Assembly (NCBI GenBank): GCA_031389045.1
Contig: JANMSE010000539.1
Span: 1,846 to 33,845 of the forward strand
Source: Deltaproteobacteria bacterium
GTDB lineage: Bacteria > Desulfobacterota > Binatia > Bin18
Reading direction: 5' to 3'
DNA: 32,000 bases
Part shown: positions 9,362 to 31,968 of the stretch, piece after piece
Layout: every line of letters begins with the position of its first letter
Position numbering within the stretch: the stretch's first letter is position 1
Translations under genes and position numbers: made by a program
Notes under the pieces: model-generated
The model's input: the letters and a program-made list of their open reading frames with translations, nothing else
The model's database searches: none
Told to the model about the DNA's origin: nothing

Positions 9362-9383
9362 AAGGTAACTCGTCTGGTGTGAG

Positions 9384-11932: not shown

Positions 11933-12069
11933 GGGGGAGGGATGAGAGGCTTGTAGTGTAAGCGGGCTCCGTTACGCGAGGATGACAGACTCGTGAAAGT
12001 TTGGTGGAAAAAATGTCACGGTCGCCGCGTCGTGGAGCAGTGACATGAAGTTCGTGAGTTTCAAGGTCC

Positions 12070-12220
12070 CTCTCCCGGCTGAGCAATGGCATGAAGTTAA
12101 GGAAGTTTTTGTCGCAGGAGAAATCACCCCCACGCCTCCCCCTGCCGGGGGTTTCAACCCCCGGTTTGCTGCGAGCAGCGCCTTTCGGCTTAACTTCATG
12201 CCATTGCCCGGCTGGGAGAG
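12070..12220. repeat. Long imperfect inverted repeat (about 32-nt arms with a 19-bp perfect core) enclosing an inner hairpin
   Basis: gcaatggcatgaagttaag (12083..12101) pairs with cttaacttcatgccattgc (12189..12207). Flanks ctctcccggctg / ccggctgggagag are partly complementary. The inner hairpin is ccggggg-tttcaa-cccccgg (12145..12164). The element lies just 3' of the PEMT-like gene (stop at 12254). Confidence 0.75.
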
Positions 12221-12253
12221 GACTAGGGTGGGGGGGATCACGTGACCTTTCCC

Positions 12254-15120: not shown

Positions 15121-15122
15121 CT

Positions 15123-16448: not shown

Positions 16449-16493
16449 AGCCGCCCCTCCTCTACATGATTTCGCATAGCGTAGTCTCACATT

Positions 16494-16544
16494 GTTACAT
16501 GCTGTTGTTCCTCGCTTGAAATTTGCGTGACGCGCGTGTGACCG
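16494..16544 (-). promoter_or_regulatory. Pho-box-like array oriented toward the GT4 operon
   Basis: Minus strand reads CGGTCAC-acgc-GCGTCAC-gcaa-ATTTCAA-gcga-GGAACAA-cagc-ATGTAAC. Five units with 11-bp phasing, scoring 6/7, 5/7, 4/7, 2/7 and 5/7. Confidence 0.45.
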
Positions 16545-16564
16545 CGATCCACGGATTCTTCATC

Positions 16565-16609
16565 CTTTCATCTCCGTTTCACACGGGTGTCATTGTTCTC
16601 CGCTATATG
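16565..16609 (+). promoter_or_regulatory. Pho-box-like array plus a -10 element oriented toward the 16663 operon
   Basis: CTTTCAT-ctcc-GTTTCAC-acgg-GTGTCAT (6/7, 5/7, 6/7; 11-bp phasing), then exactly 10 bp to TATATG (16604..16609). This is the classical Pho promoter geometry, where the box replaces the -35. Confidence 0.6.
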
Positions 16610-16662
16610 AGAGCCACAGTAGCTCTGGCCCGCCCGTCTAATACTGCCGTGGAGGAGGACGC

Positions 16663-17007
16663 ATGGAGAAGGATGAGCTCGCGGTGGCCGATCACTTACG
16701 CAATCAACTTGGCGTATTCTACTGGACGATGCGGCGCGGTGGTGACCTGGAAATCGCCGTGCGACAATTGCAAACGGAGGTGTGTTGGACCGAGCGAGAA
16801 ACCCTCTCTTGGTGTCGCTGCACCCCCCCCACGCTGTTCGCGCGCTGGAGTCAGACGCAGCTCACGTCATTATTGGGAGAAGCGAAGCAGGTGCTCAGCC
16901 GCGCGGAACAGTGTCTATCCGTGAGGGAGCCGCTTGAGAGCATCCAGCTCGGGGAGAGCGAGGCTCACGGCGACAACCCGGAAGTCGTTAGTGGACTGTG
17001 GGCATGA
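16663..17007 (+). CDS. Hypothetical protein (114 aa)
   Basis: SD gtGGAGGAGGacgcATG. Its stop overlaps the next start as ATGA (17004..17007), implying translational coupling. No family recognised. Confidence 0.5.
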   Translation: MEKDELAVADHLRNQLGVFYWTMRRGGDLEIAVRQLQTEVCWTERETLSWCRCTPPTLFARWSQTQLTSLLGEAKQVLSRAEQCLSVREPLESIQLGESEAHGDNPEVVSGLWA

Positions 17008-17675
17008 CACGGGTCCCGGTGGTGGTCGCACTGGTCGTTGTGCTCCAGGTGGAAACTGGGCGGGCGGAGCACCCGCCCGACAAGATCATTTCCTTGGAGA
17101 CGTTCGAGGCCGCCCCGCTGAAGGGTTTCCCGCCACACTGGGAAAGTCGCGGCGATAAAGCCAACGCGCGAGCCATGTACTGGATCGAGCAAGAAGAGGG
17201 GAACAAGTTTCTCCATGCGCGCGCGAGCAAGCATGATATCCAAATCGGGCTTGTTCGCGAGATCGACCCCCAGCGGTTTCCCCGACTGCGGTGGCGGTGG
17301 CGAGCCAAACAACTCCCACTCGGCGGCGATGAACGGGCCGCGGCGACCTACCACTCGGCCGCCGGGGTCTATATCATTTTTGATAGTCGCATCGTTCCCC
17401 GCATCCTCAAGTATGTGTGGAGCGCGGCCCTCCCTGTCGGATCGCGGTTGCAGAACCCATTCTATTGGCGCGGGCGCACCATCGTGCTTCGCAGTGGCCC
17501 CTCCGCCCTCGGCCAATGGCAGCAAGAGACGGTCAATTTCCATCAGGATTACAAGGACTGCTTCGCCAGCGAGCCTGGGACCGTGCTTGGTATCGCCCTG
17601 CTCACCAGCGCCGACGTGTCCAAGAGTGAGGCTGAAGCGGACTATGATGACTTCGCGCTGCACCCAGCGGAGTAA
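17004..17675 (+). CDS. DUF3047-family secreted protein
   Basis: Start at MTRVP (ATG 17004). Signal-like VVVALVVVLQVETGRA. Motifs: FPRLRWRWRAKQLPLGGDER, AAGVYIIFD, GIALLTSAD. Confidence 0.7.
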   Translation: MTRVPVVVALVVVLQVETGRAEHPPDKIISLETFEAAPLKGFPPHWESRGDKANARAMYWIEQEEGNKFLHARASKHDIQIGLVREIDPQRFPRLRWRWRAKQLPLGGDERAAATYHSAAGVYIIFDSRIVPRILKYVWSAALPVGSRLQNPFYWRGRTIVLRSGPSALGQWQQETVNFHQDYKDCFASEPGTVLGIALLTSADVSKSEAEADYDDFALHPAE

Positions 17676-17947
17676 TGAAACGTGGGTGTCATTGTCAGCC
17701 AATGGATTCGCGTCATCATGGCCTCAGGCGCGGAGATTATGATGTCGGGGGTAGGCGGTATGCTCCTCATCATCATCACTGTCGTCGTCGTCGTGATCAT
17801 TATTGTCGGCGCCGTGAGGTGGTTCAATCCCCGATAGCGCGCGCCGAAGTCCCGTAACAGAAAGTTCAAGACCGTACGATGTCGCTGTAACATCGCGTCG
17901 CGAAAATGTACGCATCACGAAGAGTGGTAGGTGTGGAGGTTCGCGGT

Positions 17948-18703
17948 ATGGGAATGGATGTGTTACGACAACCGGAATTCATTTTTCCTTCACGGCTCCT
18001 GACTGGGATAACATCTGGTGACGAGGTCGATACCCTCATCGTCTCGGATGTCCATTTGGGCACCGATCTCAGTCGTCCCGATGCCCTGCTGGCGATGCTC
18101 AAAAGCCATGTGTTTCGCCGTCTCATTTTATTGGGCGACATTTTCGACACCCTGGATTTTCGTCGCCTTCCGCGCGCGCACTGGCATCTGCTCACGTATA
18201 TCCGCGCGCTCTGTCAGCCTGAGCAGCGAGTCGAAGTGGTCTGGGTGGAAGGCAATCACGATCATCTGCTGTCGATGGTCACTCGCAGTTTTCTCGGCAT
18301 CCCGATCCACAAGCGGTATGAATGGACGTTCCGTGGACAGCGCTTCCTGGCCATGCACGGACATCAATTCGACACCTTCATCCATCGGCATCCGGTCATC
18401 ACCGATGTCGCCTGTTGGGTGTATGAAACCCTCCAGCGCCACGAGGGGAGTGACCACCGGTACAGTCGCGCGCTCAAGCACAAGAGTAAGGGGTGGCTGC
18501 GCATGTCCGAGGCCGTGGCGACGCGGGCGGCGTCCTACGCCGTGCGCCGCGAGGTGGACACGATCTTCTGTGGCCACACCCATCGCTCCTTATCGGCCAC
18601 GTTTGGCGCGGTGACGTATCACAACGCGGGCTGTTGGACCGATACGCCCGCGTCGTTCATTACCATTGGCACCCGTGGCGTCGAGGTGCATCAATATCAC
18701 TGA
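17948..18703 (+). CDS. Calcineurin-like metallophosphoesterase of the LpxH / PlcP-like type
   Basis: Start moved to ATG 17948 (GGAGG 8 nt upstream). Motifs: LIVSDVHLG, LLGDIFD, GNHD, HGHQFD, GHTH. Confidence 0.8.
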   Translation: MGMDVLRQPEFIFPSRLLTGITSGDEVDTLIVSDVHLGTDLSRPDALLAMLKSHVFRRLILLGDIFDTLDFRRLPRAHWHLLTYIRALCQPEQRVEVVWVEGNHDHLLSMVTRSFLGIPIHKRYEWTFRGQRFLAMHGHQFDTFIHRHPVITDVACWVYETLQRHEGSDHRYSRALKHKSKGWLRMSEAVATRAASYAVRREVDTIFCGHTHRSLSATFGAVTYHNAGCWTDTPASFITIGTRGVEVHQYH

Positions 18704-19031
18704 GGCGGGACCCCGACCGCGAAAAGGACTCACGATGTCACTGCCCTTCCTCTCGACTCTTCACGATCGCTTGTTCGATACGATCCATCGACGCTAACTC
18801 ATCTATAATACCTGTACTGTCCTCTCTCACCGCGCGGTTCCATCCATGTGTCACTTAGGTCCACCGCGCCTACGGGGGGCTGTGGCGCTACTGCCTCTTC
18901 CTGGGTAAAAAATGACCTCTCTGGTCCGACATGGCAGGGTGGAGTAGCTTCGCGGCGGCGATATTCACTCGCGTACTTAGCGAAGCACTCCGCGGACCGA
19001 CAGAAAACGAGAAAGCAAAAGGAGGATTTCC

Positions 19032-19154
19032 GTGACAGATCAAGAGAGGAGAAGAAGGAATAGACATGCGAAGACGATAGTTTATGGTGCTCCTCGTCCT
19101 TGCGGGGAACATAAGAGAACGGTATCGAACAGTGTAAAGTCGATCTTGCTGTGA
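19032..19154 (+). CDS. Candidate upstream small ORF (40 aa, Arg-rich), possibly coupled to the EEP gene
   Basis: aaaAGGAGGAtttccGTG gives MTDQERRRRNRHAKTIVYGAPRPCGEHKRTVSNSVKSILL*. The stop at 19152..19154 is 3 nt before the EEP ATG, which has no SD of its own. The ORF is below the track's size cut-off. Confidence 0.3.
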   Translation: MTDQERRRRNRHAKTIVYGAPRPCGEHKRTVSNSVKSILL

Positions 19155-19157
19155 TGC

Positions 19158-19895
19158 ATGATGAGAGTCGCTACCTACAACCTGTTGAAGGGCGGAACAA
19201 AACGAATCCATTGGCTCAAGATGATCGCAGAGCACCAAGTCGATTTGCTCCTGGCTCAGGAATCCGGCCCGCGGGATCACTACCTCCCGCCTCTCACGTA
19301 TCCCGACCTGCGAGGGCAGGCGGTGTGGGACATGGCCACGCCGAACCGCTGGGGAAGCGCCATCTTCGCAAAAACCGGCGCTGTGAAACAACTCCAAATC
19401 CCGAGATTCAACGGCTGGGTCGTGGGAGCGGAAATCACGGGTTTCGCGTGGCGACGTAAGGTCAACCGTCCGCTGACGGTCTTCAGCGTGCACGTGCCGT
19501 ACGGGCAGGGGGGCTATGTGAAACAAATGCACGCCTTGCTCGACGAGATCGCGCGCCTTGCCGTCGGGAAAGACGTCATCATCGGCGGGGACTTTAATCT
19601 GTCGATCAGCAATGTGCCCAGCGCGGATAAACCGATCAACAAGCGCAATGCGGCGATACAAGCACGACTCATGGAAGAATTCGGACTGATGAACTGTTGG
19701 CGGGAAGCGAACCCAGGGCGACAACCGGCGCAAACGCTCCGGTGGACGGGAAATCGCACGATCCCCTATCACTGCGATGGCATTTTCGCGCCTGCGCATT
19801 GGAGGACTCGACTGCGGTCGTGCTCCGTATTGTCAGGCGCGGAATGGGATCACCTGAGTGATCACAATCCCGTCATTGTGACATTTGCAGACTGA
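19158..19895 (+). CDS. Endonuclease/exonuclease/phosphatase (EEP) family hydrolase
   Basis: 245 aa. Motifs: RVATYNLL, LLLAQE, SVHVP, IIGGDFN, WDHLSDHNPVIV. Confidence 0.85.
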   Translation: MMRVATYNLLKGGTKRIHWLKMIAEHQVDLLLAQESGPRDHYLPPLTYPDLRGQAVWDMATPNRWGSAIFAKTGAVKQLQIPRFNGWVVGAEITGFAWRRKVNRPLTVFSVHVPYGQGGYVKQMHALLDEIARLAVGKDVIIGGDFNLSISNVPSADKPINKRNAAIQARLMEEFGLMNCWREANPGRQPAQTLRWTGNRTIPYHCDGIFAPAHWRTRLRSCSVLSGAEWDHLSDHNPVIVTFAD

Positions 19896-19896
19896 C

Positions 19897-20051
19897 GGTG
19901 GTTTGATCTAGCGGTGCCACTCTTTGCGGTAGTCCACTGCTAAGTAGACCCGCGGAAATAGTTATGCTCGCAATCTTCAAAAATCATGAGGGAAGTCCTA
20001 AAGCTGAGCATAAATCTTTTTGCGGTCCTACTTAGCCATCATTAGACCACC
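19897..20051. repeat. AT-richer element made of three nested inverted repeats (long imperfect hairpin)
   Basis: ggtggt..tcta (19897..19910) pairs with tagaccacc (20043..20051). gctaagtagacccgc (19939..19953) pairs with gcggtcctacttagc (20022..20036) at 13/15. ttatgctc (19962..19969) pairs with gagcataa (20006..20013) at 8/8. It starts 2 nt after the EEP stop. Confidence 0.65.
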
Positions 20052-20282
20052 ATCTGGCGCCCACGACGCAAGGTCAGTGGCATATCAGTGAACTCAACAT
20101 CACTGTACACCTCACGAAAGATGCTCTCGAAGCGTAACGCATCGGCAGCACCGCGCGAGAGATCTGAAAACTTGCCGTCACGTCTCGTCGCACCGAGATA
20201 TGGGAAGGCTTCGTGCCGCGGCCCAGGCTGAAAAGTGACTCACAACTGGCCGCTTGAGTGCGCCAAGGTCGTGTGGACTGAT

Positions 20283-20735
20283 TTAGACCGTGACCTTGAG
20301 CCGCCGGCCAACCCGCGTCACGCGCCGGGTTCTTTTCGCTGGAGAGCGAGCCGGGGTCGTGCGCCATTGCTGGAGCCCACGACGGATATAGTCGGGGTCG
20401 AGATTCAGAGCCTCACAAATGGAGACGAAAGAAAAAGGCCATTCCGGCTCGTCACGAAAAAACCATTCCTCGGTTTCTTGACCCAAACGACGGGCACGAG
20501 GGGTCGTGGCGGTGACATGCGTCTTGAAGCAGGTCACCGCATCGGTGAGGATCGCGCTGAGCAAGGCGTTCACCCCATGCTTCAGCGCGGACAGTGGCGA
20601 GAAAAACTGTTCTGGCAGAATCACATCCTGGGGAACGTCCGTGCTCCGCTCCAGTCGCATTTCGAGAGGGAGCGCTGAGGAACGTGAAGAAGGCGGCAAG
20701 GCGTCTTGTCGTGTGAGTTGCGGGTGTCGCAGCAT
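20283..20735 (-). CDS. Hypothetical protein (150 aa) with a basic C-terminus, possibly HTH-containing
   Basis: SGGAAGGA-type SD 8 nt upstream of the ATG. The segment WPFSFVSICEALNLDPDYIRRGL looks like a helix-turn-helix. A complete Pho-type promoter lies directly upstream. Confidence 0.5.
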   Translation of the reverse strand: MLRHPQLTRQDALPPSSRSSALPLEMRLERSTDVPQDVILPEQFFSPLSALKHGVNALLSAILTDAVTCFKTHVTATTPRARRLGQETEEWFFRDEPEWPFSFVSICEALNLDPDYIRRGLQQWRTTPARSPAKRTRRVTRVGRRLKVTV

Positions 20736-20769
20736 GGAAAAATCCTTCCGATGAGCTTCCAGGCGAAGA

Positions 20770-20825
20770 ATCCTACGTGGCGGAGGTTACACCACCATGA
20801 CAGTGCGGAGACATCTTTATGACAG
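20770..20825 (-). promoter_or_regulatory. Best Pho-box array in the window, with a -10 element
   Basis: Minus strand reads CTGTCAT-aaag-ATGTCTC-cgca-CTGTCAT-ggtg-GTGTAAC (7/7, 5/7, 7/7, 5/7; exact 11-bp phasing), then 10 bp to TAGGAT (20775..20770). It is about 62 nt upstream of the 20735 ATG and in the shared intergenic region with the GDPD gene. Confidence 0.7.
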
Positions 20826-20945
20826 GGATTGGGCTGCTCTTTTCGCTAACCTGCTGTGATCTCTTATTCACGGAACAGCCATTCTCTTGAAACATTCGTT
20901 CCGTATGGTCACGAGCAAAATTGTCCGTGACAGGAGGAAAGTGCT

Positions 20946-22187
20946 ATGCGTCAAGGGTTAGCGATAGTCGGGCTCGCCACGGTTCTCTCAACGTTCCCCA
21001 ACCAGTCGATGATCGCGTCCGCCGACAACGACAAGAATGGGTCGAAAAAACCGCTCAATGTCCAAGTCGGTCCACGCCCCTATTACCTGGTCGAAGATAT
21101 GGACCCAGGGCCGCTCAAGACCGCGCTTCAGCGATGTAGCGACAAGCCGCTCAAGAAAACCAACTTTTCCATTGGTCACCGCGGCGCACCGCTCCAGTTC
21201 CCCGAACATACCAAGGAGTCCTACGAAGCCGCCGCCCGCATGGGAGCTGGGATCGTGGAATGCGACGTGACGTTCACCAAGGACAAGGAGCTTGTCTGCC
21301 GTCACTCGCAGTGTGACCTCCACACCACGACCAATATCCTCGCGACTCCCTTGGCGGCCAAGTGCTCCGTCCCCTTCACCCCGGCTGATCCCGTGGCTGG
21401 GACGCCGGCCCAAGCGCAGTGCTGCACGAGTGACATCACGCTTGATGAGTTCAAGACGTTGCGTGGCAAGATGGATGCGTTTAATCCCGATGGCACCACG
21501 GTCGCGGAATACCTGGACGGGACTCCGAGCTGGCGCACCGACCTCTACTCCTACGATGGCACGCTCTTGAGCCATGCGGAGAGCATTGAGTTATTCAAGA
21601 CGCTGGATGTGGGGATGACCCCGGAACTCAAGGCGCCCAACGTACCGATGCCATTCCAAGGGACCTACACACAAGCACAGTATGCCCAGCAGATGATCGA
21701 CGAATACAAGGCGGCTGGCGTGTCTCCAAGGAAGGTGTGGCCACAATCATTCAGCCTGAATGACGTACTGTATTGGATTCAGCGCGAGCCCGCCTTTGGC
21801 AAGCAGGCGGTCTACCTCGACGATGCCAATGTGCCGAGCGAACTCCCGTCGGCAACTGATTTGCGGTCGTATGCCGCGCAAGGCGTGAAGATTGTCGCGC
21901 CGCCGATGTGGGCATTGATCGCTTTGCAGGGCAATCGGATTGTGCCCTCCCAGTATGCCGCGAATGCCCGCGCGGCCCGTTTGGGTCTCATCACGTGGAC
22001 CCTCGAGCGGTCCGGGCTCCTCACGGATGGTGGGGGCTTTTACTATCAGACGGTGAGTCCCGTTATCCATAAGCCAGGAGACATGCTGAACGTGCTTCAC
22101 GTCCTCGCCAAGGACGTCGGGATTCTCGGCATCTTCTCTGACTGGCCCGGGACGGTGACGTATTACGCGAACTGTATGGGACGGTAG
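20946..22187 (+). CDS. Secreted glycerophosphodiester phosphodiesterase (GDPD family)
   Basis: 413 aa with SD acAGGAGGaaagtgctATG and a signal peptide. Motifs: [16 protein letters not shown] and [14 protein letters not shown]. Confidence 0.9.
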
Positions 22188-22281
22188 TCGTCTTCCGTGC
22201 GCACGGATAGTGGGGAACAGGGCCATGCGTGACCCTGTTCCCCACTATGGGCGGACGCTTCTCGCACAGGGGAAGTATCCG

Positions 22282-24177
22282 TTAATTCAGGCGGGCAATA
22301 CGGCCTTCAATCGCGGCGGAAAACGGTTGCGTTAAGGATTGGACGTGGACAATCAGCGCGTCCAGATCGACCGGACCACCAACAGGGTTCGTCCCTTGGA
22401 GCAGGACGGTGAAATTATCTCCACCCGCCGCGAGGAAGCTGTTGACGACCACGGAGTAGGTCGCGCTTCGGTCAATCAGGGTGCCGTTTCGACGGACCTC
22501 GACGATACGGTCATTTGCTGGGCGATTATTGTCCCAGGTGTACGTCAGCCCCGCGGCCTTGAGAATGCGCGGGAACGGCTGCGGTGCCGCCCACTGTTGA
22601 TTCAAGAGGTCGTAGACTTGCTGGCCGGTCAAACTCATCTTGACCAAACTATTGCCAAACGGTTGGACCGCGAAAAGCTCACCCCACGTGACTTCTCCCG
22701 CGCGCAGATCGGCGCGGATGCCACCAGGATTCATAAAAGCAAAGTCGGCCTGCACGGCGGCCCGTTGCGCGTCGGCGATGAGATTCCCTAATGCCGACTC
22801 TCCCGCCGCGTTTTCGACTTGCAGGATATCCGCGGCGGCTTGGCCAATCACTTGATTCACCAACGGCGCCACGGTTTCCTCGGCCTGTGCCACCAATTGC
22901 GCGACTCGTGGATGCGGCGTTAATCCCGGTCCGGCATCAGCGAAGGTCGTGATAATCGACGCCGATTTGGTCACGACATCACGGCTTCTGGCGTTAATCC
23001 CCAGGGTGATGTCCGCGTAGGCTGTACTGGCCGAGAACGCCTGCGTCAGCAAAATCTCCTTGCCGTTACGGTTCTTCAGCAGCACATTGGTAAAGGAGTG
23101 GGCATGACCGGAGACCACGACATCGATGTCATCGTCGAGGCGCTGCACGATGTCCTGAATATCCGTTCCGGTGACGACCGCACTACCGGGTTGCGTCGGC
23201 CCTTGATAGGTCGTTTGCCGTCCACCCTGGTGAATGAGCACCACAAAAGTGCGGATTCCCCACGCTTTCAGTCGCGTGACGTAGCGATTAATCGCGTCCG
23301 CTTCATCAAGAAAGGTGATCCCCGCCACGCCAGTCGGTGTGACAATCGTGGGCGTCTGGCGCAGCACTGCCCCGATAAAGGCAATCGGAACGCCTCTGAC
23401 CATTTTGATTACGTATGGGTCAATGAGCGGCTTCCTATCGGCGGTGCGGACGGCATTGGCGCACACGTACGGAAATTTCGCTCCCCGATAGGGGTCTTCC
23501 AAGAAGGGGCCAGTTTCATGGTTGCCACCGTCCAACAGCCGGAGCAGCTCATCCTTGCCTTCGTCGAATTCATGGTTCCCCAAGGTGCCGACCAGATTGC
23601 ATTTCGGATTGTTTGGGTATCGGTATGAGCAGTATCTGTTGGTCAGCAGGTTGAGAAAGGAGATTGAGGGTTCATCCTGTAACAACGCCGACGCCGGCGG
23701 CGTGGCACCCACATGATCCCCGGCATGCACGATGAATGTGCGATCTTCCATGCCCGCTTGCGCCGCGTTGAGGTAGGAGGCGAGCACCGCGGCCCCACCA
23801 ACCGGGCGGTTGGCCACCAGTCGCCCAGCGGAGAGCTGGCCGTGGAAATCGTTGATCGCCAGGAGTTTGACTTGCAGCGTCTCTCCTCCTCCCTGATGCG
23901 CGCGGACTTGCTGGTCGAGCGAGCGCGGAGCCTGCCACGACACCGGAATGCGCGCGGTCTCGCGGAGAGATTGGAGCATTTCCTCCGCTTCATCATGTTC
24001 ATGGCCGACACGACACATCTCCTGCGCGGTGGCTTCGAGCGTCATCAGCAAGGCACTGACACACAGCAGTGCCCCGACATATCCCCCACGCCAGCGCGTC
24101 TCGCGCCATGCCCGAAACGAGAGCCATCTTCTTGGCGTGACGGCCTCCGACGTTGTCCATCTGAATCTTGTCAACAT
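22282..24177 (-). CDS. Bifunctional metallophosphatase / 5'-nucleotidase (UshA-like), secreted
   Basis: Start moved to MLTRFRW (ATG 24177), preceded by cAAGGAGGtcgggat. Motifs: LLAINDFHGQL, HAGDHVG, GNHEFD, HQGG, SGHAH. The C-terminal 5'-nucleotidase domain has FMNPGGIRADL. Confidence 0.9.
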   Translation of the reverse strand: MLTRFRWTTSEAVTPRRWLSFRAWRETRWRGGYVGALLCVSALLMTLEATAQEMCRVGHEHDEAEEMLQSLRETARIPVSWQAPRSLDQQVRAHQGGGETLQVKLLAINDFHGQLSAGRLVANRPVGGAAVLASYLNAAQAGMEDRTFIVHAGDHVGATPPASALLQDEPSISFLNLLTNRYCSYRYPNNPKCNLVGTLGNHEFDEGKDELLRLLDGGNHETGPFLEDPYRGAKFPYVCANAVRTADRKPLIDPYVIKMVRGVPIAFIGAVLRQTPTIVTPTGVAGITFLDEADAINRYVTRLKAWGIRTFVVLIHQGGRQTTYQGPTQPGSAVVTGTDIQDIVQRLDDDIDVVVSGHAHSFTNVLLKNRNGKEILLTQAFSASTAYADITLGINARSRDVVTKSASIITTFADAGPGLTPHPRVAQLVAQAEETVAPLVNQVIGQAAADILQVENAAGESALGNLIADAQRAAVQADFAFMNPGGIRADLRAGEVTWGELFAVQPFGNSLVKMSLTGQQVYDLLNQQWAAPQPFPRILKAAGLTYTWDNNRPANDRIVEVRRNGTLIDRSATYSVVVNSFLAAGGDNFTVLLQGTNPVGGPVDLDALIVHVQSLTQPFSAAIEGRIARLN

Positions 24178-24252
24178 ATCCCGACCTCCTTGTAGGAATG
24201 TCACACGGGTGATGCGGTCCTCGTGCGCGTGCGAGGACATATCACTACCTGT

Positions 24253-24292
24253 GTGAACGGATGACGAGGTCCGTATGAAATGTTCGTGACGG
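24253..24292 (-). promoter_or_regulatory. Weaker Pho-box-like array upstream of the 5'-nucleotidase gene
   Basis: Minus strand reads CCGTCAC-gaac-ATTTCAT-acgg-ACCTCGT-catc-CGTTCAC (6/7, 5/7, 3/7, 5/7), phased at 11 bp. The proximal unit is 76 nt from the ATG. Confidence 0.35.
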
Positions 24293-24334
24293 GAGAGACG
24301 TGGTTCTCCCGTCAGAGATCGGAAGGGGCCGAAG

Positions 24335-24360
24335 CCGCCCGACGATTGATCGTCGGGCGG
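24335..24360 (-). terminator. Perfect 11-bp GC-rich hairpin downstream of the phytase-like gene
   Basis: ccgcccgacga-ttga-tcgtcgggcgg, 54 nt past the stop at 24414. A second 9-bp hairpin sits at 24288..24311. There is no strong U-tract. Confidence 0.5.
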
Positions 24361-24413
24361 AGGGAGGGAGGACACGGCAAGTCCCGATGTGTCCGCCTGT
24401 CGCGTGATGGGAT

Positions 24414-25943
24414 TTAGTCGTGGTGATCGTGGTCGTCGTCTTCGTCGTCATCCTCGTCATCAAGCGGAGGCCGGTATCCCGCCAGATCACTCGCCGAAGC
24501 CTTGTAGGCATGCAGGACGCCGGGGATCAACACATAGCCAGTCGGTACTGGGCCGACCTCAATACCGTTCAACGTAGTGGGTTGATCCAGATCGCGCTGG
24601 ACACTGCGCCCATTGAAATCCACATACACGTCGAACTGGACGCCACCGCCGTTTTGCGTGACGGAGTAATCGTTGTCAGTGCCCGCGAGGATCAGAAAGG
24701 CCCCCCCCCGCAGTCGTGGCCCAATCGTCAAGCCTTCCCACTTCTCCGCTTTCTTGCCATTGGGCAGCACCGTGTTGGCGGCGAGGTCGATGAACACCGC
24801 TGACTTCGTCACCGGCGTGATCCCGACGGCGGCTAAGTTCCCGTCGTTCGGGAGAGGAAGGCTGGCGATATTCGTCGCGCCAGTGATGTCGATGCGGTAG
24901 ACGCGCTTGCCGCCAGTCACGCTCGCTCCCGCTGGATCATCGACACCGATGCCGCGGTTGTCCCGTTCCAGGATCAAGAACTCGAGGTTGTTAAGCGCCA
25001 CGATGGCGGACAGTCCGATGTTCCGTCCTTGGCGAGGATCCGTGGCGGTCCCTGTCCCACCAGCCGCGAGGATACGCGCCAAAATATCCGCTTGTCGTTC
25101 AAGCTGGTACGCGTACTGCGCGGTGCTCTGACGATAGGTTGGACTCTGAGGGTCATTATCGAACACCACAATGCGGAGGTTGCGACCATTACGACCGTTG
25201 TTGGGGCTCGGTTCGTTGACCAGCGGGTCCTGAAGCACCGCATAGAGCGTCTTCCCGTCTGGCGTCACGGCTAACCCTTCGAAGCCGCGATTATCCTGCC
25301 GTCCGGCGTTGAGTCCACCGTCGCGATCGGCGACATAGTTGGTGTTGCCACTGACCTTAGGAACCAGATTAGCAGGCGTCTCGAACACCGCGACCAACAT
25401 GCCACGACGGTTGAATTCGTAGATGGAGGGGCCGTACTCGTCGGAGACGAGAAAATGACCGTTCCGTGGATCAATGACGAGCCCTTCCGGATCGAAGCTG
25501 CGCCCGAGCGTCGCCACATTGCCGTTGAGCGCGAGGGGATTCAGACCATTCAGCGCGGTCGGTTCCGCGAGCGGATGAGTGGGCGCGGAGAGGATGCCTC
25601 TCGGATCGCTGAACTTGATCGTTTCTTTCACCCGGAATCGAGAAATCGCGCCGGTCACGGGATGGACCTTGATTTCGAATCGCTGGACGCGGGTCGAATA
25701 GTTCAGGACGCCGCCACCAGGACCGCGATCCGATAATGCCCACCATTCATCCTCGGTGGGGTCGTAATACATATCCGAGAAGAAACCGAGCCGTCCGGCA
25801 TTGGCGCCGGGTTTACGGGTGGCATCGAGTGTGTGTCCGGCGATCGTGAGGCCGTTGACGAAAGCGGGCTCCGCCCAAACCACGGAGCGAGGGCTCGTGA
25901 ACAAGAGACCGGTTAGCGCAAGTGGAAGCCAGAAAAGCCGCAT
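24414..25943 (-). CDS. Secreted 'esterase-like activity of phytase' family protein with an acidic/His C-terminal tail
   Basis: Start moved to MRLFWLPLAL (ATG 25943), preceded by gAAAGGAGtcactcc, with a signal peptide. Motifs: FDPEGLVIDPRNGHFLVSDEYGPSIYEF and FEGLAVTPDGKTLYAVLQ. The tail is DDEDDDEDDDHDHHD*. Confidence 0.85.
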   Translation of the reverse strand: MRLFWLPLALTGLLFTSPRSVVWAEPAFVNGLTIAGHTLDATRKPGANAGRLGFFSDMYYDPTEDEWWALSDRGPGGGVLNYSTRVQRFEIKVHPVTGAISRFRVKETIKFSDPRGILSAPTHPLAEPTALNGLNPLALNGNVATLGRSFDPEGLVIDPRNGHFLVSDEYGPSIYEFNRRGMLVAVFETPANLVPKVSGNTNYVADRDGGLNAGRQDNRGFEGLAVTPDGKTLYAVLQDPLVNEPSPNNGRNGRNLRIVVFDNDPQSPTYRQSTAQYAYQLERQADILARILAAGGTGTATDPRQGRNIGLSAIVALNNLEFLILERDNRGIGVDDPAGASVTGGKRVYRIDITGATNIASLPLPNDGNLAAVGITPVTKSAVFIDLAANTVLPNGKKAEKWEGLTIGPRLRGGAFLILAGTDNDYSVTQNGGGVQFDVYVDFNGRSVQRDLDQPTTLNGIEVGPVPTGYVLIPGVLHAYKASASDLAGYRPPLDDEDDDEDDDHDHHD

Positions 25944-26018
25944 GGAGTGACTCCTTTCTGAAGAGGTCGCCTGAGATTTGTGGTGACGACCGCACAGATA
26001 TTTCCTGGGCCGCTTGTT

Positions 26019-26058
26019 ATCCCACCACTGTGACAAAATGATGACCAGTTCACGACAT
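26019..26058 (-). promoter_or_regulatory. Pho-box-like array upstream of the phytase-like gene
   Basis: Minus strand reads ATGTCGT-gaac-TGGTCAT-catt-TTGTCAC-agtg-GTGGGAT (5/7, 5/7, 6/7, 4/7) with exact 11-bp phasing. The proximal unit is 76 nt from the ATG. Confidence 0.5.
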
Positions 26059-26091
26059 TCTTGTTACGGTTTTCCGAAGCGCCGGGTCAAT

Positions 26092-26334: not shown

Positions 26335-26606
26335 ATTTGAGTACTCCAGTATTTTCGCGGCCGTGCTCATTTCCTATTGGGGAACAAGGGGAGAGAAGGC
26401 TGCCGCTCATTCCTCAGCAACCTTCTCCGGTTGAGAGGCGCGCATTGGGATTGCGGCCTCGGGGGAGGGGAGAGGGTCGTGAAGAAGTATGCCGGCGGAG
26501 TGTTACCGGATGATGAAGGGAAGATGAAGAATCGATCTTATTTCGCGAGTGGCTGGGTTTTTCGTTGCCACGCTGGGGAAGGCGGTGGAACGGGGGAAAT
26601 ATCCGG

Positions 26607-27194
26607 TCATCCTTCTCCGCGCTCAGTATGAAGGTAACGGTCGTTGAAATCCGCGACGAGTTGTTCGCAGAGGTGCTGGATACGATGGCGGGACCCGATA
26701 CGCAGCCAGGTGCCGCGAAACGCCTCGACCGGCGCGGAGGCCGGGGCGAGGAGCGACGCGCTCCGCACAGAGTCCCGCACTTGCTGGGTAACGGTTTTGG
26801 TCACTACCGCGGATAACGCGATCCCAGAGGTTTTTCCATTCGGCGATTGGATCGGCACCCCAAGGACGATGAGGGTCCAGTCCGCTTCTGCTTGTACAAG
26901 GTGTACGTAGGGGAAAGCACTCAGGGCCTGTGCGACATGCTCTTCCACCTCGTGTGCCATATCTTCGCCCGCGGTGACTGTCAGTTTGATCCGAACGGAG
27001 GATGGCGCGGGTTCTCCGACCGCGGGTGGGGGAAACAACGCGGTGAAGGGGTCCGCCGTGGAGGCAACACCCGCTTGGTCCGTCGCGGGGAGAGTCGGGT
27101 CAGCGGACGGGTTCTTTGCTCGCGCCGGTGTCGGGGAGCGTTCGTGCGACTCTCGGTCAGCCAACAGGTCTGGGGTTTTCTTGCGTTTCGCCAT
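26607..27194 (-). CDS. Hypothetical protein (195 aa): basic N-terminal peptide, Pro/Ala-rich disordered linker, globular C-terminal domain; ParA-partner-like layout
   Basis: SD GGAGAG 9 nt upstream. N-terminus MAKRKKTPDLL, then low-complexity P/A/S/T sequence. It overlaps the 3' end of the ParA-like ORF by 38 nt. Confidence 0.6.
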   Translation of the reverse strand: MAKRKKTPDLLADRESHERSPTPARAKNPSADPTLPATDQAGVASTADPFTALFPPPAVGEPAPSSVRIKLTVTAGEDMAHEVEEHVAQALSAFPYVHLVQAEADWTLIVLGVPIQSPNGKTSGIALSAVVTKTVTQQVRDSVRSASLLAPASAPVEAFRGTWLRIGSRHRIQHLCEQLVADFNDRYLHTERGEG

Positions 27195-27447
27195 CTACGA
27201 TTCTCTCCGTCAGTTGTTGATAGTCCAGCGCACCAGACGAGCCTGGCGCGTATTCATAGATGGTCTGCCCACACCCAGGTGCTTCGGAGAGACGCACGCT
27301 GTAGCGGATGGGTTGACAGAGTTGCACCTCGTAATGCGCGTGGAGTTGTTGCAAAACCTCCTGTGATTTCTTCACGCGCCCGTCAAGAAAGGTGGGGACA
27401 ATCTTGCCCACGCCCCCTTTCGTCAGAAAAACCGCGATCTTTCTCAT
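27157..27447 (-). CDS. Mini ParA/MinD-like protein (96 aa); P-loop fused in frame to the C-terminal segment, ATPase core missing
   Basis: MRKIAVFLTKGGVGK (deviant Walker A) is joined directly to IVPTFLDGRVKKSQEVLQQL...IRYSVRLSEAPGCGQTIYEYAPGSSGALDYQQL, matching the ParA C-terminus (IPRNVRLSEAPSxGxPI..YD). About 130 aa, including Walker A' and Walker B, are absent. Confidence 0.7.
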   Translation of the reverse strand: MRKIAVFLTKGGVGKIVPTFLDGRVKKSQEVLQQLHAHYEVQLCQPIRYSVRLSEAPGCGQTIYEYAPGSSGALDYQQLTERIVDGETQENPRPVG

Positions 27448-27451
27448 TGCT

Positions 27452-27712
27452 TCAGGCCGCCGCGCCGTTGCCGGTCGTGTATTCCGCTTTCGCTTCAGCG
27501 ATGAGGTCCTCCACCTGTTCGCCCCCTTCAGCCACGAGAGTCTGGAGTGTGTCGGTCAGCAAGAGCCCGCCTTGGATCGCCAATTTCGCCACTGGACGGA
27601 CCACCGCGCCGACCACAGGCAACAACACGGGAATTGCCATCACCGCACCCAAGCCAAGGAGCACTGGCCCCCCCCATCCACTAAGCACGAGAATATCTTC
27701 AAGCAGTGCCAT
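27452..27712 (-). CDS. DUF5132-type small membrane protein (86 aa)
   Basis: MALLEDIL..GPVLLGLGAVMAIPVLLPVVGAVVRPVAKLAIQGG, then an acidic amphipathic helix (EQVEDLIAEAKAEY). It is a paralog of the 29904..30179 product. Its stop is 4 nt before the ParA-like ATG. Confidence 0.8.
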   Translation of the reverse strand: MALLEDILVLSGWGGPVLLGLGAVMAIPVLLPVVGAVVRPVAKLAIQGGLLLTDTLQTLVAEGGEQVEDLIAEAKAEYTTGNGAAA

Positions 27713-27725
27713 TAATCTCCCCCCT

Positions 27726-27765
27726 TTATCACGAAAATTTCATATAATTGTCATGCGCGTGCAAT
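27726..27765 (+). promoter_or_regulatory. Pho-box-like array, plus orientation, in the divergent control region
   Basis: TTATCAC-gaaa-ATTTCAT-ataa-TTGTCAT-gcgc-GTGCAAT (5/7, 5/7, 6/7, 4/7) with exact 11-bp phasing, in an AT-rich patch. It is more than 200 nt upstream of the 27972 start. Confidence 0.45.
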
Positions 27766-27849
27766 ATCCCATCAGGCTCCCCAACGCGATAGCTCGTGAA
27801 CCGACTTATTGCCTACCGAGGGACTTCTGTGCAAAGAGTGATGCCTCCT

Positions 27850-27889
27850 GTTGCAGGATTATTACCTTTTTATGACACAAGTGTGACAA
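27850..27889 (-). promoter_or_regulatory. Pho-box-like array, minus orientation, in the divergent control region
   Basis: Minus strand reads TTGTCAC-actt-GTGTCAT-aaaa-AGGTAAT-aatc-CTGCAAC (6/7, 6/7, 4/7, 5/7), phased at 11 bp. An AATAAT -10-like hexamer overlaps unit 3. It is about 160 nt upstream of the 27712 start. Confidence 0.5.
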
Positions 27890-27971
27890 CACAATCGACC
27901 CTCGCACCGCTGTTCGCGGACACGAGCTGAACATGGTACACCTCGTCGAGGCCATATAAGGAGTGACATAT

Positions 27972-28163
27972 ATGACGGATCCCTTTCCATCTCAACAAGA
28001 TCATCGCGAAGAGACCGAGAACAAAGCCGAGCAAATCGCTTCGTATCTCAGGCACAAACCTCAAGACTTAATCGATATCAAACGCTTAATGCACCGTTTT
28101 TGCGCGTCAGCGAAGGATTTCCAAAGAGCGTTCGTGCTCTTGGAACAACCGGTGAGGAACTAA
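27972..28163 (+). CDS. Small hypothetical helical protein (63 aa)
   Basis: AAGGAG 8 nt upstream of ATG 27972. It is the first gene of the plus-strand operon. No family recognised. Confidence 0.55.
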   Translation: MTDPFPSQQDHREETENKAEQIASYLRHKPQDLIDIKRLMHRFCASAKDFQRAFVLLEQPVRN

Positions 28164-28193
28164 TCAGGCGGGACGCGAGTCAGGAGCGAGGAT

Positions 28194-29078
28194 ATGGCTG
28201 AAAAACAACGGAGAAAAAGAAAACCCCTTGTCCACGCGCCAAAACCTGCGCGACGAGGCGTAGTGCCGCCACTGTCCGTAGAGACCGCGGCTACGGCGGA
28301 GGACAGCCCTACGGTAGACGAGAGAGGCAGTGGCGAAACAGCGTACGACAAACGGATGGCGAGTGTAGATATCTCTTCCCAAGAGGAGGAGGCACTGGCC
28401 GGGGTGCTACGGATATCCGATGTCACCCAAGAAACAGATGTGAGTACTATTACTGATGAAAGGAGAAGTGTTATGGCGCAGAGAAGCGAGACCATGAATG
28501 AAAGCGGGATTACCAGCACTGGAACCGCCCTTAGGGACGGGGTTGTTGATAGCCTCAAGGGCATCAATGAAATCGGCACCGAACTGGTCGACTTGGTTGG
28601 CAATACCCTGTCGGGAACACTGCGAACGACCGGAGTAGTGGCAAGAGATGGTCTCTCGGTTGCCAAGGATGTGGTCGTGGGAGCGGTGCAGACCGTTGCC
28701 GATGTCGGGACAGGACTGACAACGCATGCCAAGAATGTGGCAAGAGGAGTGGTGACAGGCGTGGGTGAAGTGGGAGGAGACGTGGTCGACGTGGCTCAGC
28801 AGACCGTCAAGGGCGTCATTACCGGAGTCGCTGACCTGGGTGCCATGGTCGGCGACGTCGCCGGGCGGGCCGCGCTCGGAACAGTCGCGGTCGCGCAAGA
28901 AATTGGCGGCAATGTCGGAGGATTAGCGCGCTCAACGGTCGAAGGCACACTCGAAGCCGCCGATGCGATTGGCAGGGCGGCGGTGAAAACCGCGACGCAT
29001 CTCCTTGTGTCCGTGGTCGGCGGCGTCAAAGAGGTGCTCAGCGCCGCGTTGCCGCGAGCCAGCGCGTCGAGAGAGTAA
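28194..29078 (+). CDS. Repeat protein (294 aa): basic N-terminal peptide, acidic linker, and about eight 22-residue (2x11) G/V/A-rich amphipathic repeats
   Basis: SD AGGAGcgAGGAt-ATG. N-terminus MAEKQRRKRKP. Repeats include VAKDVVVGAVQTVADVGTGLTT / HAKNVARGVVTGVGEVGGDVVD / VAQQTVKGVITGVADLGAMVGD. It is collinear with the 31321..31968 product. Confidence 0.75.
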   Translation: MAEKQRRKRKPLVHAPKPARRGVVPPLSVETAATAEDSPTVDERGSGETAYDKRMASVDISSQEEEALAGVLRISDVTQETDVSTITDERRSVMAQRSETMNESGITSTGTALRDGVVDSLKGINEIGTELVDLVGNTLSGTLRTTGVVARDGLSVAKDVVVGAVQTVADVGTGLTTHAKNVARGVVTGVGEVGGDVVDVAQQTVKGVITGVADLGAMVGDVAGRAALGTVAVAQEIGGNVGGLARSTVEGTLEAADAIGRAAVKTATHLLVSVVGGVKEVLSAALPRASASRE

Positions 29079-29275
29079 TCGTCCATTCGTTGATATGGAG
29101 ACGATGTCGTCATGCCCGCGCAGGCGGGTGTGACGCTTCTCCGGGCCACCCCGCACAATCATAGATTCCCTCTCACCTTTTCATCATCTTGTAACAAAGC
29201 CGACACCTTCAGATAACCTAAAGCTGCGATGCTGCTATCGTGGTCTTAGGAACATTCCTGAAAGGAGTCCGCAGC

Positions 29276-29656: not shown

Positions 29657-29903
29657 CCCAGTGGAGAGGAACCCTACGACCGCAGACGGCCGGCGCAGTC
29701 GCCTGCGCCGTTCTTTTCTGTCAAGCCGCGGCCCCCGGCTTTTCCCCTTTCCTACTGAGTCAGCAGCCCACAACCAACCTCCCTCCCAATACATCGAAAC
29801 TCGACTCATTGATTCTCACGCCGGAATGCCGCATAAAGCATCCCTTGGTCAATGTTACATTTTTGTTGCAGTGAGATGAACTTGCTGTGACATCGGAAGG
29901 AGG

Positions 29904-30179
29904 TTGCTCATGGCGTTACTTGGTGACGTATTTGGTAATTTGGGAGGAGCGGTGCTGATCGGTATCGGTGCGGCGTTGGTGGCTCCCCTGTTGCTCCCCG
30001 CGGCTGGGGCAATACTCCGCCCCGTGGTCAAAGGGGTGATCAAAGGAGGATTCCACCTCGCGGACACCCTTCAGGAAGTGCTCGCCGAAGGGAGTGAACA
30101 ACTGAGTGACCTGATGGCGGAAGTCCAGGCGGAACGGGCCGCGTCAGTGGCGGCAACACTGCGGACTACAGAACAATGA
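29904..30179 (+). CDS. DUF5132-type small membrane protein (91 aa)
   Basis: SD GGAAGGAGGttgctcATG. MALLGDVFGNLGGAVLIGIGAALVAPLLLPAAGAILRPVVKGVIKGG, then an acidic helix (EQLSDLMAEVQAE). Its stop overlaps the next start (ATGA). Confidence 0.85.
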   Translation: MLMALLGDVFGNLGGAVLIGIGAALVAPLLLPAAGAILRPVVKGVIKGGFHLADTLQEVLAEGSEQLSDLMAEVQAERAASVAATLRTTEQ

Positions 30180-31320: not shown

Positions 31321-31968
31321 ATGACAACAGAAGAAAGTGGGTACGGCGAGGAGATCGCCGAGAGAATCGGTCAGACCGGAACCGCCGTGAAAGATGGCAT
31401 CATTGGCAGTCTGCGTGGTCTCAATGAAATCGAGGCCGAGATTGTCAGCCTCGTGCGCAACTCGGTTTCTCACGCGTTGCGAGCGACCGGTGCCGTGGCG
31501 ACCGATGGGGTCACCGTGACGCGCGACGTGGTCAAAGGCGCGTTGCAGGCGACCGAGGAAGTCGGCGCGGGACTGACGGTTGGCGTCAAGAGTGTCGCCA
31601 AGGGCGTCATCATGGGCGTGAGCGATGTTGGCGGTGATGTCCTGAACACCGCTTATCATGTCGTGAAAGGCGTGGTGGCGGGCGCGGCGGAGGTTGGTGC
31701 CGATGTTGGCGTGGTCGCCAGTCGTGCGGTGCAGGGTGTCGTTGAAGCGACCAAGGAAATCGGCGGCAATGTGGGCACTGTCACCCAAGCGGCGGTCGCC
31801 GGCGCTCTCGCCGGCGCTGGGGCCATCAGTACCAACGCCGTCCAGGTCGTTCGCGATCTGATGATTGGTGTTGTCGAAGGTGTGTTCACGGTGGCGTCCG
31901 CCGCGTTGCCACGATCATCCAGGGCTGCCTCAGCAATCGCGGAAGCCGGAGAGCAGCAGGCCGCGTAG
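31321..31968 (+). CDS. Repeat protein paralog (215 aa) with about seven 22-residue amphipathic G/V/A-rich repeats
   Basis: Collinear with the 28194..29078 product: GTAVKDGIIGSLRGLNEIEAEIVSLV aligns with GTALRDGVVDSLKGINEIGTELVDLV, and ...ASAALPRSS aligns with ...LSAALPRAS. It lacks the basic and acidic N-terminal extension. Confidence 0.75.
   Translation: MTTEESGYGEEIAERIGQTGTAVKDGIIGSLRGLNEIEAEIVSLVRNSVSHALRATGAVATDGVTVTRDVVKGALQATEEVGAGLTVGVKSVAKGVIMGVSDVGGDVLNTAYHVVKGVVAGAAEVGADVGVVASRAVQGVVEATKEIGGNVGTVTQAAVAGALAGAGAISTNAVQVVRDLMIGVVEGVFTVASAALPRSSRAASAIAEAGEQQAA

Follow-up and report, generated by a model that had tools for sequence, protein, structure and literature searches.

Which regulator acts in the gap between two divergent genes, and on which of the two does each of its binding sites act? 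The question is raised by positions 27713..27971 of a 32,000-nucleotide (nt) stretch of contig JANMSE010000539.1, here called the window, which comes from a Binatia-like metagenome-assembled genome (MAG). These 259 nt (GC content 0.48) constitute the entire intergenic gap between a DUF5132 gene on the minus strand and a gene for a 63-amino-acid (aa) protein on the plus strand, at the head of the two arms of a conserved cluster. An earlier interpretation of the letters alone (the sequence-only reading) had noticed two arrays of Pho-box-like repeats in opposite orientations, each lying on the far side of the gap from the gene at which it points, and had linked the cluster to phosphate starvation. 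PHO boxes consist of 11-nt direct-repeat units in which seven nucleotides are well conserved and the other four less so (PMC4415409). The analysis described here makes it very likely that the repeats are PhoB-type sites and that the cluster is Pho-regulated. The best overall explanation, a composite Pho control region with two far-side promoters, is given about an even chance. The genes and repeats concerned are:

27452..27712, minus strand: DUF5132 gene 'a', 86 aa (Pfam PF17195, 28.4 bits; the gene call is present in L001)
27972..28163, plus strand: 63-aa gene, ATG at 27972, ribosome-binding site (RBS) AAGGAG at 27959..27964, heading the rightward arm
27726..27758, plus strand: array A, units TTATCAC.gaaa, ATTTCAT.ataa and TTGTCAT.gcgc (5.0, 8.4 and 9.3 bits)
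27759..27765, plus strand: fourth word GTGCAAT (1.1 bits), within the 10-nt gap preceding a candidate -10 hexamer
27850..27889, minus strand: array B, units TTGTCAC.actt, GTGTCAT.aaaa, AGGTAAT.aatc and CTGCAAC.agga (10.2, 10.1, 5.5 and 2.1 bits)

In the leftward arm, DUF5132 'a' comes first, then a truncated ParA-like gene, then a 195-aa gene. In the rightward arm, the 63-aa gene, which is kept in all relatives, is followed by the gene for a 294-aa repeat protein (28194..29078, plus strand). A script check placed the plus-strand words TTATCAC, ATTTCAT, TTGTCAT and GTGCAAT at 27726, 27737, 27748 and 27759, and the minus-strand words TTGTCAC, GTGTCAT, AGGTAAT and CTGCAAC at 27889, 27878, 27867 and 27856, with a period of exactly 11 bp on both strands, as had been read from the sequence. 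Four units had been assigned to each array; the first three stand (5.0-10.2 bits), whereas the fourth words are marginal (GTGCAAT 1.1, CTGCAAC 2.1 bits), and only three units per array are therefore credible. Around the fourth word of the plus strand, alignment positions G27761, A27764 and A27766 are invariant. The credible units of both arrays fit yTGTmAy plus 4 nt, 11 nt each, and each array has three head-to-tail units of at least 5 bits, where a PHO box comprises at least two such 11-nt units. Array A, which points right, begins 14 nt from the ATG of DUF5132 'a' on the minus strand, while array B points left and has its first base 83 nt from the ATG of the plus-strand 63-aa gene. Each array thus adjoins the start of the opposite-strand gene and points at the distant one, and the far-side geometry of the sequence-only reading is accurate.

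How far such repeats exceed chance was assessed with an 11-nt unit matrix built from 18 units, all outside the cluster, with the gap's own sites left out. The training units came from the promoters of phoX, a function-unknown gene at about 11999, a 114-aa gene, a 150-aa gene, the 5'-nucleotidase gene, the phytase-like gene and a GT4 glycosyltransferase gene. With this held-out matrix, the array B dimer at 27868..27889 (minus strand; 20.4 bits) is the top two-unit site of the whole window, and the array A dimer at 27737..27758 (plus strand; 17.8 bits) is the fifth. The observed three- or four-unit scores were attained in none of 5000 dinucleotide-preserving shuffles of the gap, and the weaker two-unit score in 6 of 5000. 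Equal frequency of the motif in coding DNA, which the sequence-only reading had named as evidence that would count against it, was not seen: at a threshold of at least 12 bits, the matrix scan found no site in 23.7 kb of coding DNA vs 21 in 5.4 kb of non-coding DNA.

A comparison with published and resident PHO boxes gives the same picture. The degenerate PHO-box consensus NTKTMAYHWWHYNKTMAY was published for cross-species promoter design and could be transferred between Escherichia coli and Pseudomonas putida (PMC8601176). Exact matches to it occur twice in the 32 kb, at 27738..27754 (plus strand) in array A and at 29179..29195 (plus strand) in a further array of the cluster, array C. With at most one mismatch, there are eight matches in the window vs 0.49 expected, two of them within the gap; 27861..27877 (minus strand) in array B matches with one mismatch. 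The phoX box TTGTCACGAGAATTTCAT and the gap site TTATCACGAAAATTTCAT in array A are identical at 16 of 18 positions. The identification as Pho boxes is thus borne out by the match to the genome's own boxes (phoX, phytase-like and 5'-nucleotidase genes), by the match to NTKTMAYHWWHYNKTMAY, and by a register that is kept in five lineages.

This conservation was determined in an alignment (A1) of the intergenic regions of 11 orthologous contigs, representing six distinct lineages. Five of these (L005, L012/13, L014/15, L006/7 and L009/10) retain the divergent gene pair, and arrays A and B occupy the same positions and register in all five, whose 294-aa proteins are 53-81% identical; only nine relatives of this protein, with 53-96% identity, are found in the protein database. 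Two-unit scores in the five lineages are 11.8-17.8 bits, and their three-unit scores are matched by at most 4 of 2000 shuffles. In array B, conservation is 0.88 at core positions 2-7 vs 0.65 in the spacers, and in array A 0.84 vs 0.75. The 259 nt as a whole are 75% conserved and contain hardly any filler. Where the leftward gene is absent, the arrays decay: in L011, array B is disrupted by deletions and array A lacks unit 1, and in the seventh lineage, the Binatia MAG L017, which is alignable over the right half only (alignment A3), array A is absent and array B is weak. The decay of array B upon loss of the leftward gene in L011 and L017 was counted in favour of array B serving that gene. The metagenome scan yielded no further usable orthologous intergenic regions, and for P0008 and P0005 the contigs either do not include the region or come without DNA.

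The second line of evidence is synteny. A genome scan found the cluster core in MAGs labelled Binatia, Nitrospirae/Nitrospiraceae, Methylomirabilota, Desulfobacterota lineages and Chromatiales. The core comprises DUF5132, HMA_2 proteins, a 215-aa paralogue of the 294-aa protein, a paralogue of S-adenosylmethionine synthetase (MetK) and a Ca-type P-ATPase with an N-terminal HMA_2 domain. In the Nitrospiraceae contig L019 (7260..9160), the cluster adjoins PstS (TIGR02136, 281.6 bits), PstB and PhoU; in L022 (15100..20260) it adjoins a PhoB-like regulator, PhoU (TIGR02135) and PstB; in the Methylomirabilota contig L023 (13200..17751) it adjoins PiT, a PhoR-like kinase and a PhoB-like regulator; and in the unclassified MAG L018 a PhoR-like kinase and a regulator fragment lie beside it. 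Canonical arrays precede cluster genes also in L019, L021 and L023. The pstS promoter of L019 reads ATGTAAC-agaa-ATGTAAC-ggaa-CTGTAAC-attc-TTGTAAT, followed by 10 nt, TATTGT, an RBS and the ATG, and has the same unit type as the cluster arrays. The same motif is therefore found upstream of hallmark Pho genes, namely phoX, the phytase-like gene and the 5'-nucleotidase gene in the window and pstS in the related L019. Response regulator genes are not encoded in the Binatia-type clusters examined. The link between cluster and phosphate that the sequence-only reading had drawn from the arrays is supported by homologous clusters elsewhere, which adjoin pstS-pstB-phoU, phoB-phoR or PiT and carry canonical Pho promoters. 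Since sites and synteny are two independent kinds of evidence, membership of the cluster in the Pho regulon is very likely. A Pho-type promoter in front of a 103-aa open reading frame (ORF) of L019 (8931..8950, minus strand) has its -10 hexamer TTTAAT on the annotated start codon, with transcription from about the second ATG, which suggests that this mRNA would be leaderless.

How the arrays could act depends on the promoters associated with them. In 9 of 11 reference promoters, including Nitrospiraceae pstS, the best -10-like hexamer lies exactly 10 nt past the last unit. The corresponding elements of the gap, and two conserved elements between the arrays, are:

27765..27770, plus strand: candidate rightward -10 TATCCC, exactly 10 nt after unit 3 of array A; predicted start about 27777
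27840..27835, minus strand: candidate leftward -10 CACTCT, 9 nt after unit 4 of array B; predicted start about 27828
27863..27858, minus strand: alternative leftward -10 AATAAT, with GTCACA 18 nt upstream; predicted start about 27851
27789..27811, no strand: imperfect palindrome ATAGCTCG-N5-CGACTTAT(TG), 21-23 bp, amid the predicted transcript overlap and containing the most conserved block
27823..27833, no strand: conserved block ACTTCTGTGCA, TTGCAC on the minus strand (27833..27828), conservation 0.88

The aligned rightward -10 hexamers are TACCCC, TATCCC, TACCCT, TATAGT (L007) and CAGAGT. The relatives of the first leftward candidate read CATTTT, TACTCT, TACCTT and TATTCT, with A2 and T6 invariant (A1 columns T157 and A153) and a gap of 7 nt in L009. 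The alternative hexamer AATAAT, in which A2, T3 and T6 are invariant, is the sole sigma-70-like match of the promoter scan, at a gap to unit 2 of 8 nt rather than 10. In L017, a sigma-70-like TAGACG-N17-TATAAC lies 11 nt upstream of the palindrome, a location that would put the rightward start upstream of the palindrome as well. The ACTTCTGTGCA block lies at a fixed 17 nt from CAATAA (27810..27805), the spacer being constant in length and variable in sequence across seven lineages, and a weak promoter can be read from it on both strands. A sigma-70 scan of the alignment gave several weak and mutually exclusive promoter readings on both strands, by which direction is not separated.

According to the proposed mechanism, the gap would be the composite control region of a Pho-regulon member, with two facing PhoB-type arrays flanking a palindrome. 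At low phosphate (Pi), a phosphorylated PhoB homologue would bind head-to-tail on each array and bring RNA polymerase to a promoter without a -35 element. From array A, transcription would run rightward (-10 at about 27765..27770, start at about 27777) into the 63-aa gene, the 294-aa repeat protein gene and the subsequent genes, and array B would fire leftward (-10 at 27840..27835 or 27863..27858, start at about 27828 or 27851) into the DUF5132/ParA-like/195-aa operon. The leaders would be about 195 nt (rightward) and about 116-139 nt (leftward) long, with a complementary stretch of about 50-75 nt that has at its centre the palindrome, which in turn would serve a PadR repressor that is present in relatives and deleted in this genome. 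The predicted overlap is near the roughly 60 nt of the sequence-only reading; we infer it, like PhoB as the binding protein, activation instead of repression, and the start sites, from the arrangement of the sites. That array A drives the rightward operon is about an even call, and the same holds for array B and the leftward operon. The combination of both arrays acting on the far side with overlapping leaders is somewhat less probable than either part, falling moderately short of an even chance, and a regulatory role for the antisense overlap is unlikely; mutual antisense control, at which the sequence-only reading hinted, is speculative.

The layout agrees in part with PhoB promoters of Escherichia coli and other Proteobacteria such as those of pstS and phoA, which likewise consist of tandem 11-nt units with the core CTGTCAT/TKTMAY. 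As in those promoters, the array would stand in for the -35 element, about 10 nt before a weak -10 (here a candidate), and the motif stands before phosphate-scavenging genes of the same genome. Unlike in those promoters, two arrays face each other across one gap, each beside the start of the other gene, and the predicted leaders of 116-195 nt contrast with derived distances of 46-82 nt from array end to start codon at the other promoters of the window.

The centre of the gap is occupied by the palindrome, in which 27801..27811 is the most conserved 11-nt block (0.95) and which in L017 is a perfect inverted repeat. The motif is present exactly twice per Binatia-type cluster. It was not found in the clusters of other phyla scanned (L018-L026, L029), and no padR was seen there, though padR was not systematically checked. 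The second copy and two further arrays lie in the rightward arm:

29178..29233, plus strand: array C with its -10 (units 29178..29221), TTTTCAT, TTGTAAC, CCGACAC, AGATAAC, 10 nt, GATGCT
29789..29811, no strand: second palindrome copy ATACATCG-N5-CGACTCAT TG, directly after padR in relatives
29850..29893, minus strand: array D, ATGTCAC, AGTTCAT, CTGCAAC, ATGTAAC (8.5, 4.6, 2.7 and 7.8 bits)

In relatives, a padR gene sits between the HMA_2 gene and a second DUF5132 gene, 'b' (L005, L006, L007 and L009); it is confirmed in L005, L006/L007 and L009/L010 and inferred for L017 from a gap of about 580 bp. In the window, padR has been deleted (29661..29790), with about 25 N-terminal codons still alignable, and both palindrome copies persist. 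The palindrome is probably the operator of a cluster-encoded PadR repressor that has been lost here. Like the operators of PadR repressors, it is a palindrome found near a padR gene, occurring twice per cluster with one copy directly after padR in relatives. The characterised PadR operator motif is ATGT-N8-ACAT; the motif here is instead ATAGATCG-N5-CGATCTAT. A further difference from usual PadR systems is that padR is deleted in the window while the motif persists.

The second palindrome copy is part of a larger repeat. Positions 27783..27900 and 29783..29909 are homologous in the same orientation and each contain the palindrome, a TGC block and a four-unit minus-strand array (alignment A7), with array D homologous to array B unit by unit. 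Together with the neighbouring paralogues (DUF5132 'a' and 'b', HMA_2 proteins of 138 and 181 aa, and the 294- and 215-aa proteins), this indicates an old internal duplication of the control region. Array D abuts the RBS of the plus-strand DUF5132 'b' (ATG at 29910), is oriented away from it and is kept in four lineages. A -10-like hexamer conserved across lineages was not found after array D; the GATGCT of the window is weak (1.4 bits, gap of 11 nt) and L006 has no counterpart. Array C, by its layout, is the canonical Pho-type promoter of the HMA_2 gene: its dimer scores 17.6 bits, it is kept in six loci, its -10 reads GATAAT in relatives, and analogues are present in the Methylomirabilota contig L023 and the Desulfobulbus-labelled L021.

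Several of these observations weigh against two far-side promoters. On an E. coli matrix, the candidate -10 hexamers of the window score poorly (TATCCC -0.8, CACTCT -0.1), and for array B the spacing is 9 nt rather than 10. Array A itself contains a conserved -10-like hexamer of the minus strand, GACAAT/GATAAT/TACAAT (27752..27747). Conservation in the gap peaks in blocks other than its best Pho units, and a PhoB gene was not found in the window, which contains only an orphan HAMP-HisKA kinase next to phoX. The second cassette copy stands upstream of DUF5132 'b' without a divergent gene, its left neighbour (padR in relatives) being on the same strand, so a leftward promoter there would make antisense RNA only; this weakens a simple model of arrays that each act on the distant gene. 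Directly at the RBS of each DUF5132 paralogue lies an array that is oriented away from the gene (A for 'a', D for 'b'), which suggests a function tied to the adjacent gene.

An explanation that starts from these points, and that is distinctly less likely than the two far-side promoters, is that the arrays are genuine PhoB sites that act on the genes next to them, chiefly by occlusion or repression, with neither far-side firing nor overlap, and that parts of the cluster are switched off at low Pi. Array A would then cover a proximal promoter of DUF5132 'a', with the -10 GACAAT at 27752..27747 and a leader of about 20-30 nt, array D would act likewise on 'b', and array B would lie within the transcribed leader of the 63-aa operon. 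It is consistent with occlusion that the best conserved minus-strand sigma-70-like signal lies inside array A, that arrays A and D abut the DUF5132 RBSs in reverse orientation, that an analogue of array D exists in the Methylomirabilota contig L023, that arrays B and D belong to homologous cassettes which both lie upstream of plus-strand genes, and that array D has no lineage-conserved -10 at the canonical distance (the window's GATGCT being weak, at a gap of 11 nt). PHO boxes are capable of repression as well as activation (PMC4415409). However, since the minus-strand nACAAT reads as A-TTGT on the other strand, its conservation would follow automatically if unit 3 serves as a Pho unit. Moreover, array A has the canonical 10-nt spacing to the rightward -10, which reads TATAGT in L007, array B decays upon loss of the leftward gene, and array C in the same cluster has the layout of a canonical activating promoter. 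Array D, the duplication of the cassette and the -10 inside array A nevertheless keep occlusion alive, and it is for this reason that the face-to-face model is held at less than an even chance.

The 11-bp direct-repeat architecture is common to OmpR/PhoB-family regulators, and the repeats might be bound by another OmpR-family regulator or a cluster-specific factor, the likeness to Pho boxes then being at the family level only. Besides this shared architecture, such a factor would fit cluster arrays rich in TGTAAC and TGCAAy, the TGCAAy units scoring poorly on the Pho matrix yet being the most conserved, and the strong arrays of L017, which adjoin cluster-associated genes and not known pho genes. 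It is made improbable by the pstS promoter of L019, which has the same unit type (four TGTAAy units, 10 nt, TATTGT), by the occurrence of the motif before phoX, the phytase-like gene and the 5'-nucleotidase gene, the phoX site being identical to array A at 16 of 18 positions, by the absence of response regulator genes from the Binatia-type clusters, and by the PhoB-like nature of the regulators beside the cluster in other phyla, which sit with PhoR, PhoU or PstB. More improbable still is that the conservation reflects RNA-level elements, such as a structured leader or a hairpin at the palindrome, or sigma-70 hexamers, with the Pho-like words incidental. Conservation of 75% over the whole gap would suit this explanation, as would an RNAalifold hairpin at the palindrome, in which G-U pairs are allowed only on the plus strand, and the resemblance of TTGTCA to a -35 and of AAT-ending words to a -10. 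Yet Rfam gave no match over 27400..28300 even at E-values up to 1, compensatory changes occur in 2 of 20 pairs with a covariation term of -0.59 kcal/mol, composition-matched shuffles never attain the array scores, the register-specific conservation fits protein-binding units, and there is one sigma-70-like pair only.

Other candidate elements of the gap were considered and rejected. For a structured rightward leader, RNAalifold on seven lineages produced two small hairpins, which together with the low covariation were not convincing. A sigma-54 promoter at the conserved TTGCA blocks was dismissed by eye, the GG/GC spacing being off by one and unconserved. Small ORFs in the gap (44 aa on the plus strand, 49 aa on the minus strand and a 42-aa call in L001) lose their frame among relatives and were rejected because indels of 1-2 nt in alignment A1 break it. 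An inverted repeat flanking array B (27817..27831/27890..27904) is present in the closest relative only and is not conserved. Against centromere-like repeats for the ParA-like ATPase, likewise rejected, stands the occurrence of the same motif before phoX and pstS. The ParA-like gene itself (27157..27447, minus strand) carries a clean in-frame internal deletion that takes out the greater part of the ATPase core; compared with the 252-aa homologue in L005, residues 1-15 and 176-251 remain.

The 294-aa family has no sequence relative in the PDB and no match in Pfam or NCBIfam, and the 215-aa paralogue (31321..31968, plus strand) has no Pfam match. In the conserved C-terminal half, an AlphaFold model for the 294-aa family shows four helices, each of about 42 residues, at low confidence; with a confidence score (pLDDT) of 37.7, the model is too poor for a fold search.

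The surroundings of the cluster are rich in phosphate-related genes. The window contains a phosphate-scavenging island (7776..26069) whose genes are preceded by CTGTCAT-type arrays. The best 11-bp-phased matches of a crude CTGTCAY scan are concentrated in a few intergenic regions before these genes, and read in register, the island boxes consist of units yTGTCAy or yTTTCAy plus 4 nt. Its genes and arrays, with one array between island and cluster, are:

7776..9266, minus strand: PhoX
9340..9361, minus strand: Pho-type array before phoX
11967..12021, minus strand: Pho-type array
12254..16490, minus strand: GT4 glycosyltransferase, aminotransferase and PEMT-like genes
16998..17675, plus strand: DUF3047
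17906..18703, plus strand: metallophosphoesterase
20782..20825, minus strand: Pho-type array
20946..22187, plus strand: GDPD
22282..about 24180, minus strand: 5'-nucleotidase
24249..24292, minus strand: Pho-type array
24414..25943, minus strand: phytase-like gene
26026..26069, minus strand: Pho-type array
26498..26530, minus strand: array E, TCTTCAT, CCTTCAT, CGGTAAC, 10 nt, CATACT

Array E precedes an 80-aa ORF located between the phytase-like gene and the cluster. Two further arrays of the window, 16565..16597 (plus strand) and 16512..16544 (minus strand), stand back to back, unlike the facing arrays A and B. The longest ORF of the 5'-nucleotidase (22282..24375, minus strand) is over-extended at its 5' end, with the Pho array 24249..24292 inside it and an RBS and ATG near 24178. 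The phytase-like protein ends in an acidic, His-rich tail, DDEDDDEDDDHDHHD, which may be metal-binding. A gene for a HAMP-HisKA-HATPase kinase (9384..10367, minus strand) adjoins phoX, with no response regulator nearby; the kinase matches PhoR/PnpS models over the kinase core only, and its N-terminus overlaps an ORF at 10222..11238. Just upstream of a Pho array, a 33-nt inverted repeat (12069..12101/12189..12221; 91% complementary, arms 87 nt apart) could be a hairpin or a small mobile element.

With regard to known systems, the regulatory element is of no new kind, as both PHO boxes and overlapping divergent promoters are known already. In Staphylococcus aureus, the divergent genes tagG/tagH and pdf1/SA0943 have complementary long 5' untranslated regions, and cleavage of the duplex by RNase III co-regulates the neighbours (PMC3386247). 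The gap resembles these loci in that the promoters would lie beyond each other, here judged from the geometry of the sites only; it differs from them in that both promoters would be under the same activator, with a palindromic operator in the overlap. The 'excludon' loci of Listeria are likewise divergent genes with overlapping leaders. Because overlapping divergent leaders are documented, the proposed architecture would be a new instance and not a new principle.

The closest parallel for the gene content is the neighbourhood of ccyA in Microcystis, for which the passages of a preprint on DUF5132 and HMA describe genes for DUF5132, CoBaHMA/HMA_2 and Ca2+ transporter proteins linked to intracellular amorphous CaCO3 (bioRxiv 10.1101/2024.07.07.602159). 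As there, DUF5132, HMA_2 (CoBaHMA) and a calcium-type transporter occur together, the latter here being the Ca-type P-ATPase with an N-terminal HMA_2 domain. In contrast to the ccyA neighbourhood as described in those passages, no calcyanin is present, and a ParA-like protein, the MetK paralogue and the repeat proteins of 215-294 aa are additional. The tie to phosphate regulation is that of the present cluster, and those same passages do not mention it for ccyA (bioRxiv 10.1101/2024.07.07.602159). A full-text search for DUF5132 found no paper beyond this ccyA study (bioRxiv 10.1101/2024.07.07.602159).

What is new is the connection of a conserved cluster of unknown function to the phosphate regulon, through Pho-type promoters and, in several phyla, through physical proximity to pst, phoU, phoBR or PiT. 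One phosphate-responsive activator acting on two convergent promoters, whose transcripts overlap a PadR operator, would constitute a bidirectional, antisense-coupled switch, and the cluster under its control, in Binatia, Nitrospirota, Methylomirabilota and Desulfobacterota, might make an intracellular structure or membrane system that depends on phosphate; this far-reaching picture is unlikely. For CoBaHMA/DUF5132 proteins, the sole prior hint at a role is a correlation with intracellular carbonate inclusions in cyanobacteria, and phosphate supply provides a concrete condition under which to seek a phenotype of the cluster. The significance of the finding is chiefly that it offers a handle on an uncharacterised cluster shared by multiple phyla.

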